Origin: a virus
DNA: 13,294 nt
Virus genome (UHGV): UHGV-0121640
Reading direction: 5' to 3' (one strand)
The notes under the pieces were generated by a model that saw only the letters and a program-made list of their open reading frames with translations, was not told where the DNA came from and did not search any database. Positions within the stretch are counted from its first letter, which is position 1, and the number at the start of each line of letters is the position of its first letter. Below are positions 2,128-8,695 of this stretch, in pieces. The translations under genes and the position numbers were made by a program.

Positions 2128-2982
2128 ATGTTACTTAACTGGCAGGGACGCCATTTCATGGAAATAAATCACTCACGAATAACATCGTACGAGATTGCGG
2201 ATTACATGATCCGCACTAAATCTCTTCTATCAGCGAAAGAACTCGCAGCAATTCTTGAAAAGGAATACCCGCATCTGGATGTCGATAAGCGCGATGTTTA
2301 TCTGCGCTTAAAGGCTATCGCTGTGTCTAAGTATTCGTCTGTTTTGATTGATGACAGTACGTGTATTCGCCTGGTGCAGGAAATGCGCGATCAGCAAAAA
2401 GACGATGATGAAGGTACTCCGCCTGAATACCGTATCGCGAGCATGCTAAACAGCTGTTCCGCGCAGATAAGCAGCCTGATCAACACCATTTACAGCATCC
2501 GGAATAACTATCGAAAAGAAAGCCGGGAGGCGGAAAAGCACGCTTTGTCTATGGGGCAAGCTGGCATTGTTAAGCTGGCATACGAACGAAAGCGTGAAAA
2601 TAACTGGTCAGTGCTGGAAGCAGCTGAATTCATCGAGGCGCATGGTGGGAAAGTTCCGCCCCTGATGCTGGAGCAAATCAAAGCCGATCTGCGTGCTCCT
2701 AAGACCAATACCGATGACGAGGAAAACCAAACAGCATCTGGCGCTCCATCCCTTGAAGATCTGGATAAAATCGCACGAGAACGGGCCGCCAGCCGCCGCG
2801 CTGATGCCGCATTGTGGATTGAGCATCGTAGAGAAGAAATTGCCGGTATCGTCGATACAGGTGGTTATGGTGATGTCGATGCGGAAGGCATATCAAACGA
2901 AGCATGGCTTGAACAGGAGCTGGACGAAGACGAGGAGGAAGACGAAGAAGTTACCCGCAAACTGTACGGGGATGATGATTAA
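2128..2982 (+). CDS. Hypothetical 284-aa protein with strongly acidic C-terminal tail (DEDEEEDEE); operator-controlled; possibly a late-gene activator (Lpa-like) or terminase small-subunit-like protein
   Basis: Long ORF with coding-like composition; no Walker A; no P1 pac-type TGATCA hexamer cluster inside. Function not assignable from sequence. Confidence 0.6.
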
Positions 2983-3934
2983 TGGCCAGAAGTTGCGTAA
3001 CCGCATCTTATTACTGTCACAGCCTACACGCCCAAGCGGCTATTTCTACGATACACACCATAAACTGGCCAAGCGTCCTGGTAACCCAGATGGCGTTTAT
3101 ACGGCGATCACGCTTAACAGTGAGGAATCACCGCTGGTAACGCCAGAATTTATCAAAATGAAGCTGGCGGAGTACGGCGGGCGTGATAACCCTATGTACA
3201 TGATTAAGGTACGCGGCCTATTCCCTAAATCACAGGACGGATTCCTTCTTGGACGTGATGAGGTTGAACGTGCGACGCGGCGGAAAGTCAAGATTGCCAA
3301 AGGATGGGGCTGGCTTGCATGTGTGGACGTTGCTGGTGGTACAGGACGGGATAAGTCCGTTATCAATATCATGATGGTGTCCGGCCAGCGAAATAAACGC
3401 CGTGTAATCAACTATCGAATGCTGGAATACACAGACGTTACAGAAACGCAGCTTGCCGCCAAAATTTTCGCAGAATGTAATCCTGAGCGATTCCCCAATA
3501 TCACCATAGCGATAGACGGCGATGGCCTGGGTAAAGCAACGGCGGATCTGATGTACGAGTATTATGGTATTACCGTACAGCGCATACGCTGGGGTAAAAA
3601 GATGCATAGCCGTGAAGATAAGAGCCTGTACTTTGATAAGCGTGCTTATGCCAATGTTCAAGCCGCAGAGGCCGTAAAATCTGGTCGTATGAGACTGGAT
3701 AAGGGTAATGAAACTATTGAGGAAGCGTCGAAAATCCCTGTAGGGATTAACTCCGCAGGTCAATGGCGGGTGATGACTAAGGAAGACATGAAGAAAAAGC
3801 TCAACCTGCACTCACCAGACCATTGGGATACATATTGTTTCGCTATGCTGGCGGATTATGTTCCCCAGGATGAGGTGCTAAGCGTCGAAGACGAAGCGCA
3901 GGTTGATGAAGCTCTGGCATGGCTTAATGAATAA
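2972..3934 (+). CDS. Terminase large subunit-like protein, C-terminal RNase H-fold nuclease half only (about 320 aa); no Walker A/B ATPase motifs; start uncertain (ATG 2972 or 2975)
   Basis: Motifs LLLSQP (ATPase motif III-like), [41 protein letters not shown] resemble acidic catalytic motifs of terminase nuclease domains. The upstream 2693-2971 extension in the track looks non-coding (overlaps 2128 ORF in another frame). Confidence 0.5.
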
Positions 3935-3937
3935 ATA

Positions 3938-3954
3938 CTTGCTCTAATAAATTG
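3938..3954 (+). promoter_or_regulatory. C1 operator-like site CTTGCTCTAATAAATTG (15/17), overlapping a possible promoter (-35 TTGTGA 3952-3957, -10 TACATT 3975-3980)
   Basis: Direct sequence match; position analogous to the operator controlling the immI promoter in P1 (recalled). Confidence 0.5.
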
Positions 3955-4085
3955 TGATTTTTGACTGCCGATGTTACATTGAACCTGACATCTTGCGCCT
4001 TGAGGCATTTTCGGTTTATGCTTATCAGGCACCTCATTAAAACGGGTGCCGGGATTGAGACCCCGGATAATGCAAAAGGCGACAC

Positions 4086-4109
4086 AGACGCCAAAAGCGT
4101 CTTTTTTTT
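4086..4109 (+). terminator. Rho-independent terminator: stem AGACGC / GCGTCT, loop CAAAA, followed by T8
   Basis: Hairpin plus U-run read directly at 4086-4109. Confidence 0.6.
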
Positions 4110-4159
4110 GTGTCATGCCATCGCACAGCCATACGTAGCGTTTAGCTCAGAGATCAATG

Positions 4160-4238
4160 GTAGTGCTGGCTGGGCTGCCGAAAGGCAGGCCGGTTCCCTT
4201 TTGCGCCGGTAGTCTCAACCCAGTCAGTGCTACCGCCA
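4160..4238 (+). ncRNA. Candidate c4-like antisense RNA: about 77-nt three-way-junction (tRNA-like) structure; boundaries approximate
   Basis: 13-bp closing stem 4162-4174 / 4219-4231 (3 G-U), internal hairpins CTGCC-GAAA-GGCAG (4175-4188) and 4190-4209, single-stranded GTCTCAA (4212-4218) complementary to TTGAGAC at 4055-4061 and 4241-4253; GGCAGGCC complementary with one bulge to GGCTGCC just after the downstream SD. By analogy to P1 c4 (RNase P-processed antisense RNA). Confidence 0.3.
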
Positions 4239-4294
4239 TTGAGATTGAGACCTCACGCGGTAGCTCCTTAAATTAGCAAAAGGAGGCTGCCATT

Positions 4295-4516
4295 GTGGCT
4301 ACTATCCCTACCCCTGCTCATCCTGAATTTATCTGGCGCTTTTACTCCTGCCAAAAACGTCACTATCACTTCGTTATTGCACCGACAGAAGATGAGGCAC
4401 GTTCTCAGCTTCCTGACGCCCCATGTATTTTCTCTGCCCGTTTTTCCACTGATTCACGCAATTCTCTCAGTTACTGGTGCCTCCCTGTTAACGCTTCTGC
4501 TCAGGAGGGACTATGA
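4295..4516 (+). CDS. 73-aa small protein, GTG start, translationally coupled to the antirepressor (ATGA overlap); icd-like position in an immI-type operon
   Basis: Strong SD AAAGGAGG (4279-4286) 8 nt before GTG 4295; stop TGA 4514-4516 overlaps ATG 4513. Size matches recalled P1 Icd (73 aa); sequence identity not verified. Confidence 0.5.
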   Translation: MATIPTPAHPEFIWRFYSCQKRHYHFVIAPTEDEARSQLPDAPCIFSARFSTDSRNSLSYWCLPVNASAQEGL

Positions 4517-5625
4517 GAACATCGTTAGTTACCCGTGAAGAGATGATCGAGGCAATTGAACAGCACACTGCCTGTATCAGTACCAGGGATATACCTGGCG
4601 TTATTGCCAACTACTTCATGATCACCAAACAACTTTACCGGAGAAAGGACAAACACGCGGTTCACCGCATTCTGCTAACCGATATCCGAGAATACCTGCT
4701 CGAACAGGGTCATCTGAATTACGCAACCGTCGCAGCCGAAGCACGCAAGGAGGCACACAGAATGAAAGCAACTAACGTTAAATCAGAAAAAATTTATGCA
4801 CCTTCAGTTCAGGAATCGGAACTGGTGGTTGTTCAGAATCAGCCGGATGAAATTCCCGTTCTGGAATGGCAGGGAGTACGTGTCGTGACAACCGAAACTC
4901 TTGCTAGAGGGTATGGGGTCGATGAAGCCAATATTCGCAACAATTTGTCTCGCAACCTTGACCGCTTTGAAGAAGGTAAGCATTACTTTCTTCTAACTGG
5001 TTTAAAATTAAGAGAATTTAAGAACAGAGTAACTGGAAGTTACTCTGTTGGTAAGAACGCCAGAAGCCTTACACTCTGGACAGAGCGCGGCGCTGCACGC
5101 ATGTCTAAGATCGTGGACACAAATGAAGCATGGGCATTCTTTGAAAAACTGGAAGACAGCTACTTCCGACAAAAAGAACAGCAACCGGTTGCAATCCCCC
5201 AAACATTACCAGAAGCCCTACGCCTGGCTGCCGAACTGGCTGAACAAAAGCAGCTTCTGGAACAGAAAGCCCACCAGCTAAATCAGCAGCTGGTGGCCGC
5301 CGCTCCTAAGGTCGATTTTGCCGACCGGGTATCAGTAGCTAAAGGGATCCTGATTGGGAATTTTGCAAAGGTTGTTGGACTTAAGCAAAACGCGCTGTTT
5401 GCCTGGTTACGGGAGAACGGCATCCTGATAGCGTCCGGTGGACGTAAAAATGTGCCGTTCCAGCAGTACATCAACGCGGGGTATTTCACGGTGAAAGAAG
5501 TGGTGCTGGATGATGAAAATGGCTACCAGATACGGCTGACGCCCCAATTAACGGGTAAAGGCCAGCAGTGGTTGACGCGTAAACTGCTCGATGCTGGCTT
5601 GTTAAAACCGGTGGCGGCTGAATAA
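4513..5625 (+). CDS. ant: Phage antirepressor, N-terminal ORF6N-type and C-terminal KilAC-type domains (370 aa); nested in-frame internal start at 4762 (287 aa) with its own SD, Ant1/Ant2-like
   Basis: ORF6N-like stretch LEWQGVRVVTTETLARGYGVDEANIRNNLSRNLDRFEEGKHYFLLTGLKLREF; KilAC-like stretch VSVAKGILIGNFAKVVGLKQNALFAWLRENGIL...QQYINAGYF; SD AAGGAGG (4747-4753) before ATG 4762. Sizes fit recalled P1 Ant1/Ant2 (42/32 kDa). Confidence 0.75.
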   Translation: MRTSLVTREEMIEAIEQHTACISTRDIPGVIANYFMITKQLYRRKDKHAVHRILLTDIREYLLEQGHLNYATVAAEARKEAHRMKATNVKSEKIYAPSVQESELVVVQNQPDEIPVLEWQGVRVVTTETLARGYGVDEANIRNNLSRNLDRFEEGKHYFLLTGLKLREFKNRVTGSYSVGKNARSLTLWTERGAARMSKIVDTNEAWAFFEKLEDSYFRQKEQQPVAIPQTLPEALRLAAELAEQKQLLEQKAHQLNQQLVAAAPKVDFADRVSVAKGILIGNFAKVVGLKQNALFAWLRENGILIASGGRKNVPFQQYINAGYFTVKEVVLDDENGYQIRLTPQLTGKGQQWLTRKLLDAGLLKPVAAE

Positions 5626-5632
5626 TGGAAGA

Positions 5633-5654
5633 ATGCCCGGTTGATGCCGGGCAT
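5633..5654. terminator. Hairpin ATGCCCGG-ttgatg-CCGGGCAT between convergent ant and c1 3' ends; possible bidirectional terminator
   Basis: 8-bp perfect stem read directly; flanks only moderately T-rich on both strands. Confidence 0.4.
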
Positions 5655-5657
5655 AAT

Positions 5658-6509
5658 TTATTGCGCGCTTTCGGGGTTGTCGTTTACTGGCTGCCCCTTC
5701 TTGGTTTTACGGCTGCGCGTAACTGATGCGGCTGACTTAACCTTTTTCTCTTCGCGAGTGATGGCAATTTGTTTTTTTACATTTTCAATATCTGCCAGGC
5801 GATATATTTTTGCTTGCGGCCAGCGGTCGCAGATGATCGGTTCTATGGAGTCATAAAGGCTAAATTTTGCTTTTTCGAATTCACCGTTGATGATAATTCC
5901 ATCACGGAGAGTTTCATCGCAGATAAACACGCCACACAGTGGCACATGGTAACTCACTGATTTACCATCATTGTAGTTAGGGCTACTGGAAATGTAGTGG
6001 ACGCGCAGCATTGTTTCGCTAAAGCCGTGTACGCGCATACGGAATTTTTCATCCTCCGGGTACTGCTTCATTAGCTCTTTTGTTGCTTCCAGGTTCTCTA
6101 TGTATTTCGCACTGTGCTCATTGATCCCCGCGCTTTTCTGGATGCGAATGTCCTTATCAATCAGATGAATAATGCGGCCAGCGGTCATGTTGACGCTGTT
6201 CACAGCTTCTGTCTGATAAGTCGTAACCTTACGCACACCGCGAAGGATGTTAGGCACTGGATATAAAATAGTCTTTGGGATATTGAGGTCTGGGTACTGT
6301 TCCAGTTCCCGCGCCATTAAAGTCCATTTATCAATTTCAGCCTGAATGCTGTCAGTTTCTTTGAACGGTAGAACGACAACCGGGCGTACAGGACGACCGT
6401 CGCTGGCTGTATCAACGTGTTGGGCGCGTGCAACAGCTTTTTTTAGAAAGAGATCCCTGAAGCTGACGAACTCCTGGTACAGTTGTTCGCCGTAGACATA
6501 ATTTATCAT
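5658..6509 (-). CDS. c1: C1 repressor of lysis (primary immunity repressor, immC), 283 aa
   Basis: Translation MINYVYGEQLYQEFVSFRDLFLKKAVARAQHVD...NDNPESAQ matches P1 C1 as recalled; strong SD (GGAGGAGG on minus strand) 5 nt before ATG. Confidence 0.93.
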   Translation of the reverse strand: MINYVYGEQLYQEFVSFRDLFLKKAVARAQHVDTASDGRPVRPVVVLPFKETDSIQAEIDKWTLMARELEQYPDLNIPKTILYPVPNILRGVRKVTTYQTEAVNSVNMTAGRIIHLIDKDIRIQKSAGINEHSAKYIENLEATKELMKQYPEDEKFRMRVHGFSETMLRVHYISSSPNYNDGKSVSYHVPLCGVFICDETLRDGIIINGEFEKAKFSLYDSIEPIICDRWPQAKIYRLADIENVKKQIAITREEKKVKSAASVTRSRKTKKGQPVNDNPESAQ

Positions 6510-6619: not shown

Positions 6620-6829
6620 TTATTGTGAGTCTAACTGGTTAGTTGCCATGAGATATTCGATTGTGTCAGTGAGGTCATCCAGGTCGTCTTGGGTGATGCG
6701 GTACTCCTGATTGGATATCTTTGAGTAGTGTTCAGCAATGGCGCGGGCAGCGTCGGTTTCGGCAGGGTCTACAGATAAAGCGTTAGAGCAATGTCTAACG
6801 TCGTCGATGGTTGGTTGAATGAAAGCCAT
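6620..6829 (-). CDS. coi: Coi, C1 inactivator, 69 aa
   Basis: 69-aa acidic ORF immediately upstream of c1 on the same strand, as in P1 immC; size matches recalled Coi. Confidence 0.8.
   Translation of the reverse strand: MAFIQPTIDDVRHCSNALSVDPAETDAARAIAEHYSKISNQEYRITQDDLDDLTDTIEYLMATNQLDSQ
6776..6792 (-). promoter_or_regulatory. C1 operator-like half-match inside coi coding sequence (minus strand ATTGCTCTAACGCTTTA; first 10 bp perfect)
   Basis: Direct sequence match of left half only. Confidence 0.25.
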
Positions 6830-7084: not shown

Positions 7085-7150
7085 TGTCAAACAACTATGA
7101 AAAACAATCCAGTTTTTTGCTGGTGGAGTGGGATTTTTCTCTCAAAATTT

Positions 7151-7167
7151 ATTGCTCTAATAATTCT
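7151..7167 (+). promoter_or_regulatory. C1 operator (ATTGCTCTAATAATTCT; 15/17)
   Basis: Direct consensus match. Confidence 0.55.
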
Positions 7168-7210
7168 TGATTTTTATATGCAGCTGGACGTAAACTCCTC
7201 TTCAGACCTA

Positions 7211-7244
7211 ATAACTTCGTATAGCATACATTATACGAAGTTAT
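7211..7244. other. loxP: loxP site: ATAACTTCGTATA-GCATACAT-TATACGAAGTTAT (13-bp inverted repeats, 8-bp spacer)
   Basis: Exact 34-bp canonical loxP read directly. Confidence 0.98.
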
Positions 7245-7315
7245 CTTAAGGGTTATTGAACATGATCAATTTACCTGTAAATCCATACAGTTCAATGCCT
7301 TATCAGGTCAAATAG

Positions 7316-7337
7316 TGATCACTTGATCATTTGATCA
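7316..7337. promoter_or_regulatory. Three TGATCA hexamers at exact 8-bp phase (7316, 7324, 7332), with a fourth at 7263: Dam-site cluster in the cre upstream region
   Basis: Read directly; methylation-sensitive cre promoters are described for P1. Confidence 0.5.
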
Positions 7338-7342
7338 AGGTT

Positions 7343-7401
7343 GCGCTACGTAAAATCTGCGAAATGTTGGCAGTGTTAGTGCTCCAGATTTCGCGTAGCG
7401 C
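7343..7401. repeat. 17-bp imperfect inverted repeat GCGCTACGTAAAATCTG ... CAGATTTCGCGTAGCGC (15 Watson-Crick + 1 G-T over 17) separated by 25 bp
   Basis: Pairing checked base by base; lies 35 bp upstream of the 7435 ORF. Confidence 0.55.
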
Positions 7402-7434
7402 ACTTAGCACCACCTAATCAATCAGAGGTGAAAA

Positions 7435-7656
7435 ATGGGATATTCAGCTGCTAAAGTGTCCACTCATCTTGAGCTTGAGAAAAACCGTGGTTACTGGCGG
7501 GCAAAAGGGTTTGATCGTGATAGTTGTCAACTGTCATTATCGCGCGGTGAAGAGAAAATAGAACGCACGCGCGGTCGCTGGCGTTTCTATGACGAGAACC
7601 ATAAACAGGTAAAGGCAGAGCCGATCCTGTACACTTTACTTAAAACCATTATCTGA
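7435..7656 (+). CDS. Hypothetical 73-aa basic protein between loxP and cre; stop 8 nt before cre ATG
   Basis: SD GAGGTG 4 nt upstream of ATG; ORF fills the loxP-cre gap. I cannot tell whether it is expressed. Confidence 0.35.
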   Translation: MGYSAAKVSTHLELEKNRGYWRAKGFDRDSCQLSLSRGEEKIERTRGRWRFYDENHKQVKAEPILYTLLKTII

Positions 7657-7663
7657 GTGTTAA

Positions 7664-8695
7664 ATGTCCAATTTACTGACCGTACACCAAAATTTGCCTG
7701 CATTACCGGTCGATGCAACGAGTGATGAGGTTCGCAAGAACCTGATGGACATGTTCAGGGATCGCCAGGCGTTTTCTGAGCATACCTGGAAAATGCTTCT
7801 GTCCGTTTGCCGATCGTGGGCGGCATGGTGCAAGTTGAATAACCGGAAATGGTTTCCCGCAGAACCTGAAGATGTTCGCGATTATCTTCTATATCTTCAG
7901 GCGCGCGGTCTGGCAGTAAAAACTATCCAGCAACATTTGGGCCAGCTAAACATGCTTCATCGTCGGTCCGGGCTGCCACGACCAAGTGACAGTAATGCTG
8001 TTTCACTGGTCATGCGACGGATCCGAAAAGAAAACGTTGATGCCGGTGAACGTGCAAAACAGGCACTGGCGTTCGAACGCACTGATTTCGACCAGGTTCG
8101 TTCACTCATGGAAAATAGCGATCGCTGCCAGGATATACGTAATCTGGCATTTCTTGGGATTGCTTATAATACCCTGCTACGTATAGCAGAAATTGCCAGG
8201 ATCAGGGTTAAAGATATCTCACGTACTGACGGTGGGAGAATGTTAATCCATATTGGCAGAACGAAAACGCTGGTTAGCACCGCTGGTGTAGAGAAGGCAC
8301 TTAGCCTGGGGGTAACTAAACTGGTTGAGCGATGGATTTCTGTCTCTGGTGTGGCTGATGATCCGAATAACTACTTGTTTTGCCGTGTCAGAAAAAATGG
8401 TGTTGCCGCGCCATCTGCCACCAGCCAGCTATCAACTCGCGCCCTGGAAGGGATTTTTGAAGCAACTCATCGATTGATTTACGGCGCTAAGGATGACTCT
8501 GGTCAGAGATACCTGGCCTGGTCTGGACACAGTGCCCGTGTCGGAGCCGCGCGAGATATGGCCCGCGCCGGAGTTTCAATACCGGAGATCATGCAAGCTG
8601 GTGGCTGGACCAACGTAAATATTGTCATGAACTATATCCGTAACCTGGATAGTGAAACGGGGGCAATGGTGCGCCTGCTGGAAGATGGCGATTAG
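7664..8695 (+). CDS. cre: Cre tyrosine recombinase, 343 aa
   Basis: Translation MSNLLTVHQNLPALPVDATSDEVRKNLMDMFRDRQAFSEHTWKMLLSVCRSWAAWCKLNNRKWFPAEPEDVRDYLLYLQARGLAVKTIQ... ends ...MVRLLEDGD; canonical Cre as recalled. Confidence 0.97.
   Translation: MSNLLTVHQNLPALPVDATSDEVRKNLMDMFRDRQAFSEHTWKMLLSVCRSWAAWCKLNNRKWFPAEPEDVRDYLLYLQARGLAVKTIQQHLGQLNMLHRRSGLPRPSDSNAVSLVMRRIRKENVDAGERAKQALAFERTDFDQVRSLMENSDRCQDIRNLAFLGIAYNTLLRIAEIARIRVKDISRTDGGRMLIHIGRTKTLVSTAGVEKALSLGVTKLVERWISVSGVADDPNNYLFCRVRKNGVAAPSATSQLSTRALEGIFEATHRLIYGAKDDSGQRYLAWSGHSARVGAARDMARAGVSIPEIMQAGGWTNVNIVMNYIRNLDSETGAMVRLLEDGD

Follow-up and report, generated by a model that had tools for sequence, protein, structure and literature searches.

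A conserved inverted repeat over the upstream cra-cre promoter of P1-like elements as a candidate two-part DNA operator

By sequence comparison, the virus genome UHGV-0121640 (13,294 nucleotides, nt; hereafter the window) is the immunity, lox and cre region of a P1-like phage-plasmid. Positions 7316-7401 form the core of its upstream cra-cre promoter, named pR1 or P3cre, and hold two separate control devices, a cluster of Dam methylation sites and an inverted repeat. The repeat is real and strongly conserved, recurs beside Cre-like recombinase genes in many enterobacterial plasmids and has apparently not been described before. It may be an operator made of two DNA half-sites that straddle the transcription start, a reading that we consider evenly balanced between right and wrong. 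Since none of the three GenBank records inspected (P1 AF234172, P1 X03453 and P7 AF503408) annotates this repeat, the suggestion of an earlier note on this DNA that it could be an additional operator for a dimeric regulator was a fair one, and it is the explanation favoured here.

In the first device, three units of 8 base pairs (bp) put Dam sites in and beside two alternative TTGATC -35 hexamers, so that the methylation state would modulate the promoter, a mechanism published for P1. In the second, which is distinct from the Dam units, a protein with sequence specificity would recognise, in duplex DNA, two inverted 17-bp half-sites exactly 25 bp apart, bound along a single face of the helix as one dimer or as two. 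One half-site covers the pR1 -10 and the other lies at about +22 to +39 from the expected start (an estimate from the annotated -10). We infer that binding would clamp the start site and restrain transcription into the recombinase operon.

The inverted repeat and the promoter that it overlaps

The features of the region are the following:

7316-7339, three head-to-tail 8-bp units, TGATCACT, TGATCATT and TGATCAAG, with one TGATCA each
7317-7320, 7325-7328 and 7333-7336, Dam sites within the triplet
7331-7356, + strand, promoter pR1 (P3cre), -35 TTGATC at 7331-7336 and -10 TAAAAT at 7351-7356 (AF234172 nt 104-129)
7343-7359, left, lox-proximal arm of the repeat, GCGCTACGTAAAATCTG, containing the pR1 -10
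7360-7384, 25-bp spacer, holding the expected pR1 start
7385-7401, right, gene-proximal arm, CAGATTTCGCGTAGCGC, ending 33 nt before the cra start codon

Window positions 7100-7700 were 97-99% identical to P1, P7, phiW39 and SJ46 (window position 7228 equals P1 coordinate 1, the lox centre, which gives an offset of 7227 from P1 to the window). The locus was present in 695 of 5,426 complete E. coli genomes, nearly always on a plasmid. The promoter coincided with the cre promoter pR1 of P1 (X03453, AF234172, AF503408) in locus, hexamers and GATC positions relative to loxP, the hexamers being identical in the alignment to the three records. An alternative -35, also TTGATC, was found at 7323-7328 (the two lie at X03453 147-152 and 155-160, with the -10 at 175-180). 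The P1 promoter differs in having two GATCs in the triplet, against three in the window and P7, and the records are silent on the repeat that overlaps the -10. Transcription from pR1 would start near 7363, judging from the annotated -10.

The repeat described in the earlier note proved real, with 15 Watson-Crick pairs, one T.G and one A.C over 17 bp, and one extra pair (7342/7402) prolonged the stem (17/18-nt repeat). The half-site consensus covers 17 bp, NCGCTACG-YR-AAWTCTG, and the whole element 59 bp (17-25-17), with the arm centres 42 bp apart, that is, four helical turns. A comparable inverted repeat (at least 16/18, spacer of 60 or less) was obtained in 7 of 300 dinucleotide-preserving shuffles, and no further copy of an arm was found elsewhere in the window. 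With its 17-25-17 layout and arms unlike the lox of any lineage, the element is not a lox-type site, which has 13-bp arms and an 8-bp spacer.

The arms were conserved to a degree that their surroundings were not. In 66 unique P1-like haplotypes, a sample retrieved with the arm pattern itself, variable sites amounted to 0/17 in the left arm, 2/17 in the right arm, 14/25 in the spacer and 6/33 in the leader; in a second sample of 75 P1-like contigs, collected by means of their Cre protein, 74 kept the exact arms. The 25-bp spacer was the most polymorphic part of the non-coding interval from lox to cra in P1-like contigs. Additionally, the cra leader of the window carries a one-base insertion at 7412-7413 (CCTAATC versus CCAATC in P1, P7 and most P1-like copies), so that the right arm lies 33 nt from the cra start codon, up from 32.

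The repeat in other recombinase loci and plasmids

A search for distant matches yielded the repeat alone, at 78% identity, on a conjugative plasmid of Klebsiella oxytoca. A pattern of both arms with three free positions per arm (14/17 fixed) and a gap of 20-28 nt was present in 112 contigs of viral and at least 120 of metagenome origin. Although the gap was free within these limits, the spacer measured 25 nt in 242 of 242 copies. When the gap was widened to 6-36 in the viral collection, the same 112 stretches were recovered and, among the matches listed, all were 57 nt long, corresponding to the 25-nt spacer. The spacer sequences themselves were highly diverse, and the spacer occurred in both orientations relative to lox and gene (P1 and Klebsiella types versus Pantoea types).

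A Cre-type recombinase (median 342 amino acids, 39-43% identical to Cre) was found in 34 of the 98 non-P1 loci, its start a median of 34 bp from one arm, and many non-P1 recombinase loci had a lox-like 13-8-13 site 40-136 bp past the other arm. The common order was a lox-like site, a GATC-rich interval, the distal arm, 25 bp, the proximal arm and, after a further 30-35 bp or so that include a ribosome-binding site, the start codon. The complete element was also present in two Pantoea loci that had been retrieved through the protein alone. The arms remained constant while the lox arms and the recombinases diverged, which makes a recombinase in its lox-binding mode an unlikely reader of the repeat. 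In two viral contigs (L121 and L076), which encode a Cre fragment 77% identical over 122 amino acids, the lox arms equal those of loxP with a different spacer (ATGTGTGT); the 98-bp interval is the same, with a LexA box and GATCs, and the repeat has an unrelated 25-bp spacer.

The Dre/rox-type loci, whose recombinases are 55-100% identical to a Dre-type query (L254) that is itself about 42% identical to Cre, kept only a proximal motif, TTTTTC(G/A)CGTAGCG, about 30 nt before the start codon, as did one Citrobacter locus. No second arm was found in either, and the right-arm core TTYRCGTAGCG is the single-copy motif of the Dre/rox-type loci. A Vibrio homologue and an Aeromonas homologue had nothing resembling the repeat or the motif. 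In the Dre/rox-type loci (L253, L254, L258-L290), with TTGGCA in the rox spacer and a perfect TATAAT 18 bp beyond the right rox arm, a strong-looking promoter towards the recombinase gene overlaps the recombination site.

These single-motif loci raise the alternative that the gene-proximal TTYRCGTAGCG alone has a function, as a signal in the leader or close to the promoter. The distal arm would then be an inverted duplicate that happens to supply a -10, and the symmetry would have no role. The single copy at an equal distance from the start codon fits this, and so does the gene-ward TAAAAT of the distal arm, which every P1-like copy has and 8 of 15 others share; in Pantoea piersonii a generic scan called a promoter that uses it. 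We nevertheless find the alternative doubtful, as both arms, where two exist, are conserved over 14/17 positions with their spacing fixed despite randomised spacers, and Klebsiella plasmids retain both arms with no recombinase gene within 2.5 kb in the loci inspected.

In those Klebsiella plasmids (L016:2480-2960, L005:2360-2800 and L017) the repeat belongs to a conserved non-coding module of about 330 bp near psiA. The order of the module is a lox-like AACACTTCGAATA-N8-TATTCCATGTGTT, the palindrome AAAAGTTACTTTT, the repeat, some 110 nt, the hairpin GGGCTGAAGCCCTTT, which resembles a terminator, and another copy of AAAAGTTACTTTT. The 301 bp around the Klebsiella copy matched 1,813 PLSDB records, 1,110 of them from Klebsiella, and a Cre homologue was encoded in only 15 Klebsiella plasmid records. 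The module had no match to an Rfam family and may encode a small RNA. It resembles ColE1 cer, where a promoter (Pcer, for Rcd) stands beside a multimer-resolution site, as lox-like site, repeat, about 110 nt and terminator-like hairpin do here; cer shares no sequence similarity and uses another recombinase family. The likeness is an analogy only, and the Klebsiella transcript is hypothetical. A broader proposal, which we regard as a long shot, is that the 59-bp repeat would be the site of a putative Enterobacterales or plasmid DNA-binding factor that gates Cre-type multimer-resolution recombinases; in more than 1,000 Klebsiella plasmid records, beside an orphan lox-like site, it would drive a small transcript and provide a cer/Rcd-like link between the multimer state of the plasmid and the physiology of the host.

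Double-stranded site or folded strand

Conserved half-sites, fixed phasing, a free spacer and overlap with the core promoter, the marks of a two-part operator, were all present. Pairing was examined in 90 unique copies. At arm position 9 the pairs were T.G in 35 copies, T-A in 46 and C.A in 9, and C-G never occurred. Position 10 had A.C (26), G.T (34) and G-C (26), and position 13 had A-T (55), T.T (32) and A.A (3), but never T-A. No compensatory change was detected at these three variable arm positions, and only 9 of the 90 copies were perfectly paired. Each arm kept ACG-YR-AAW on its own strand, as expected of independent half-sites, and the interior of the spacer had neither a conserved helix nor co-variation. 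The repeat did not behave as a structured RNA, with no Rfam match, no compensation and no inner helix, in a test that was partial because most stem positions were fixed by the pattern.

An RNA hairpin in the 5' untranslated region, the alternative offered by the earlier note, was not borne out for pR1. The pR1 -10 lies inside the left arm, so pR1 transcripts start inside the repeat, lack the left arm and form no hairpin, and the folding of their leader was ordinary (z +0.4). The matter is different for the promoter upstream of loxP:

7151-7167, + strand, C1 repressor operator Oc1e (ATTGCTCTAATAATTCT), identical to AF234172 94724-94740
7167-7196, + strand, promoter P4cre, -35 TTGATT at 7167-7172 and -10 TAAACT at 7191-7196 (AF234172 94740-94769)

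Both P4cre hexamers are identical in the window, and the promoter, which is governed by Oc1e (according to AF234172 a C1 operator that 'may control' cra and cre expression), reads rightwards through loxP, the Dam cluster and the entire inverted repeat. Only P4cre read-through RNA would contain both arms. The repeat could be an RNA hairpin of upstream read-through transcripts alone (in P1, those of P4cre), serving as a processing site (e.g., for RNase III), a stabiliser or an insulator, and cra-cre expression would then differ between P4cre and pR1 transcripts. P4cre and its operator are intact, and as RNA the repeat folds stably (-28.4 kcal/mol, z = -3.4). Moreover, wobble-compatible changes are commoner on the + than on the - strand, and 13 of 19 Pantoea-type spacers have, gene-ward, a small hairpin with a T-rich tail, against 0 of 19 on the other strand, under lenient criteria. 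This small hairpin is absent from the P1-type spacer and, the criteria being lenient, counts as no more than a lead.

We judge this hairpin unlikely all the same. Besides the missing co-variation and the rarity of perfect pairing, the strand that pairs better differs between loci, being sense in P1 and antisense in the Pantoea type, and an invariant 25-nt loop of free sequence is unexpected for a plain hairpin. No Rfam family matched above chance level when the region and three related loci were searched. Nor is the repeat an intrinsic terminator, since there is no U-tract 3' of the stem; the loop is 25 nt long, a T-run was found on neither strand, and a terminator scan of 7100-7800 returned nothing terminator-like.

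A structural role of the DNA, as a cruciform or single-strand hairpin for recombination, replication or plasmid transfer beside lox, appears very improbable. It would agree with the lox-like site that is always 40-136 bp away and with the Klebsiella copies near psiA, in an apparent leading region that would enter recipients single-stranded. The mismatches, however, are uncompensated, a 25-nt loop disfavours cruciform extrusion, and Cre/loxP requires just its 34-bp site. Only simple products were obtained in vitro with a loxP fragment of 601 bp that extends 236 bp in the direction of cre (PMC2409434), which also speaks against such a role.

Some observations weigh against the operator. Most copies came from a pattern that left just three of the 17 arm positions free, so that co-variation was testable at these three only. 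The wobble-compatible changes, 78 on the + strand versus 39 on the - strand, are a weak hint of single-strand folding, and the functional unit may be one arm, given that Dre/rox-type loci keep the gene-proximal motif only. The annotated -35/-10 spacing of pR1 is poor (14 or 22 bp), for which reason the promoter was not called by a generic scan. Compared by eye, the arms of the putative operator fit no consensus of C1, LexA, ParB box A, XerCD or lox half-sites. Finally, no other arm copy was found in P1 nt 1-50,000 or 89,500-94,800 (about 58% of the genome scanned), so it is unlikely that the regulator is encoded by P1 and controls a wider regulon.

Several candidates for the binder of the putative operator were considered and set aside. 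By inspection the arms match neither the C1 consensus ATTGCTCTAATAAATTT nor the LexA box CTGT-N8-ACAG, and the genuine C1 and LexA sites of the region lie elsewhere, at 7151-7167 and 7273-7292. The binder is probably not the recombinase acting through its lox-binding surface, and probably not Cra, a protein without a Pfam family or a PHROG function; in most lineages with the repeat, no cra separates the repeat from the gene for the recombinase. The P1 ParB box A (ATTTCAC) occurs in some copies, but the YR step varies and the P1 arms read ATTTCGC and ATTTTAC. A proposed ArgR/PepA site in the vicinity of loxP lies on its opposite, c1 side and failed to bind ArgR (PMC2409434). The XerC arm GGTGCGC, sigma-E promoter motifs, the inner end of Tn3-family terminal repeats and lox half-sites were dropped by eye.

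Dam sites, neighbouring genes and related systems

The three TGATCA hexamers were confirmed at 7316-7321, 7324-7329 and 7332-7337. They do not fall on alternating faces of the helix, as had been supposed: 8 bp correspond to about 274 degrees, or some three quarters of a turn between neighbours, and only sites 1 and 3, 16 bp apart, are on roughly opposite faces. TGATCA was not enriched across the whole window (6 found versus 4.3 expected), and three within 30 nt occurred in 1 of 300 dinucleotide-preserving shuffles of the window.

The triplet GATCs overlap the pR1 -35 and are flanked by the divergent promoters P2coi and pR1. GATCs within or beside a -35 hexamer were found at 7325-7328 and 7333-7336 and, as in P7, at 7317-7320. 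In the P7 record (AF503408) the three are labelled Dam sites 2-4 of the cre regulatory region, and the GATC at 7264 is annotated as well. P1 (AF234172) has Dam sites at nt 98-101 and 106-109, equal to window 7325-7328 and 7333-7336; its first 8-bp unit reads TGACCA, so that P1 has two triplet GATCs where the window and P7 have three. Three GATCs were found in 129 of 142 P1-like copies, while one unit was lost by an 8-bp deletion in 7 and a point change was present in 6, the class to which the P1 reference belongs. The copy number of the 8-bp TGATCANN unit thus varies among natural P1-like plasmids.

The activity of the cre promoter is reportedly higher without Dam. The methylation-sensitive cre regulatory region anticipated by the earlier note is supported by the 97-99% identity and the annotated Dam sites of P1 and P7, and the triplet is the known Dam cluster at the cre promoter, in the form with three sites that P7 also has. 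Identity to P1 and existing attributions account for the promoter hexamers and the triplet but do not extend to the inverted repeat. Here, Dam control of pR1 is taken from the title of Sternberg et al., 1986 (J Mol Biol 187:197) and from GenBank notes. In non-P1 loci GATC was enriched between lox and the repeat (35 observed versus 7.8 expected), so Dam control is probably common to the Cre-type family.

TGATCA is also the hexamer of the P1 pac site, and the window indeed lacks the P1 segment that holds pac. Compared with P1, two deletions in 2358-3001 have taken out the late promoter LPpac, the 3' end of lpa and the 5' parts of both pacB and pacA, the latter with pac. From these losses, the element should be unable to package DNA or to switch on late genes. 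That the triplet is a substitute or relic pac site in an element without a normal one, as its hexamer and the true absence of pac might suggest, can be practically dismissed. The triplet is shared with P7, whose record annotates pacA and pacB, and with the 129 of 142 P1-like copies, while the genes lpa, pacA and pacB are all truncated in the window, which leaves no intact PacA and PacB. The P1 pac consists of seven TGATCA/G hexamers in two clusters about 90 bp apart, irregularly spaced as 4 + 3 (spacings 7, 12, 15, then 12, 11; starts at L251 1223, 1230, 1242, 1257 and 1353, 1365, 1376), which enclose, within pacA, an IHF site and the points of cleavage; the triplet has three hexamers only, at 8-bp spacing, and no second cluster.

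The remaining features around the promoter are the following:

5658-6509, - strand, c1
6620-6829, - strand, coi
7211-7244, loxP, 13-8-13, exact loxP sequence
7264-7267, Dam site 1 of the cre regulatory region, annotated at nt 37-40 in both P1 and P7
7268-7295, - strand, leftward promoter P2coi (AF234172 nt 41-68), divergent from pR1
7273-7292, LexA box within P2coi (AF234172 nt 46-65)
7435-7656, + strand, cra, 73 amino acids, the first downstream gene (PHROG 804, 'unknown function')
7664-8695, + strand, cre, 343 amino acids

The P2coi interval had zero variation in the alignment of the window, P1 and P7. A Pfam search with the cra product gave no family. In many GenBank, RefSeq and PLSDB records matching window 7245-7440 the gene is named 'creatininase', which looks like an annotation error propagated from the gene symbol. 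The second cre promoter within cra, pR2 or P2cre, also has a TTGATC -35 (7511-7516), with a Dam GATC at 7513. Between pacB and c1, positions 3934-5659 did not align to P1; related phages have Icd-like and Roi/Ant-like genes annotated there (open reading frames 4295-4516 and 4513-5625).

The arrangement was compared with other control regions. As in res-tnpR of Tn3 and gamma-delta, the recombination site is separated from the gene for its recombinase by a control region, in a position suited to limiting synthesis of the enzyme; there, however, the recombinase itself binds res, which doubles as operator, whereas here the repeat is separate from lox and unlike its half-sites. Several GATCs are packed into the promoter region as in agn43/OxyR and pap/Lrp, but in those systems they lie in the binding site of the regulator, and here in the -35 region, outside the repeat and without a known competing regulator. 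The NikR operator (GTATGA-N16-TCATAC) likewise has inverted half-sites at a strictly fixed distance with a free spacer; the half-sites of the repeat are much longer (16-17 bp) and farther apart (25 bp), and its binder is putative.

The arm sequences had no match in the relevant full texts searched. The papers that report the discovery of Cre-type recombinases limited their searches to palindromes of 13-15 bp with an 8-bp gap, and a 59-bp element would therefore be missed. Together with a lox-like site, the repeat offers a practical landmark for Cre-type modules, one that goes unused in searches limited to 13-8-13 palindromes. Few recombination systems are as widely used as Cre/loxP, and yet the control of Cre levels in P1 and its relatives is only partly described (several promoters and a Dam effect). 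The repeat points to an unrecognised control step, situated on the main upstream promoter and unchanged while the recombinases diverge to about 39-43% identity, as its invariant spacing and its persistence in Klebsiella plasmids without a nearby recombinase gene also indicate.

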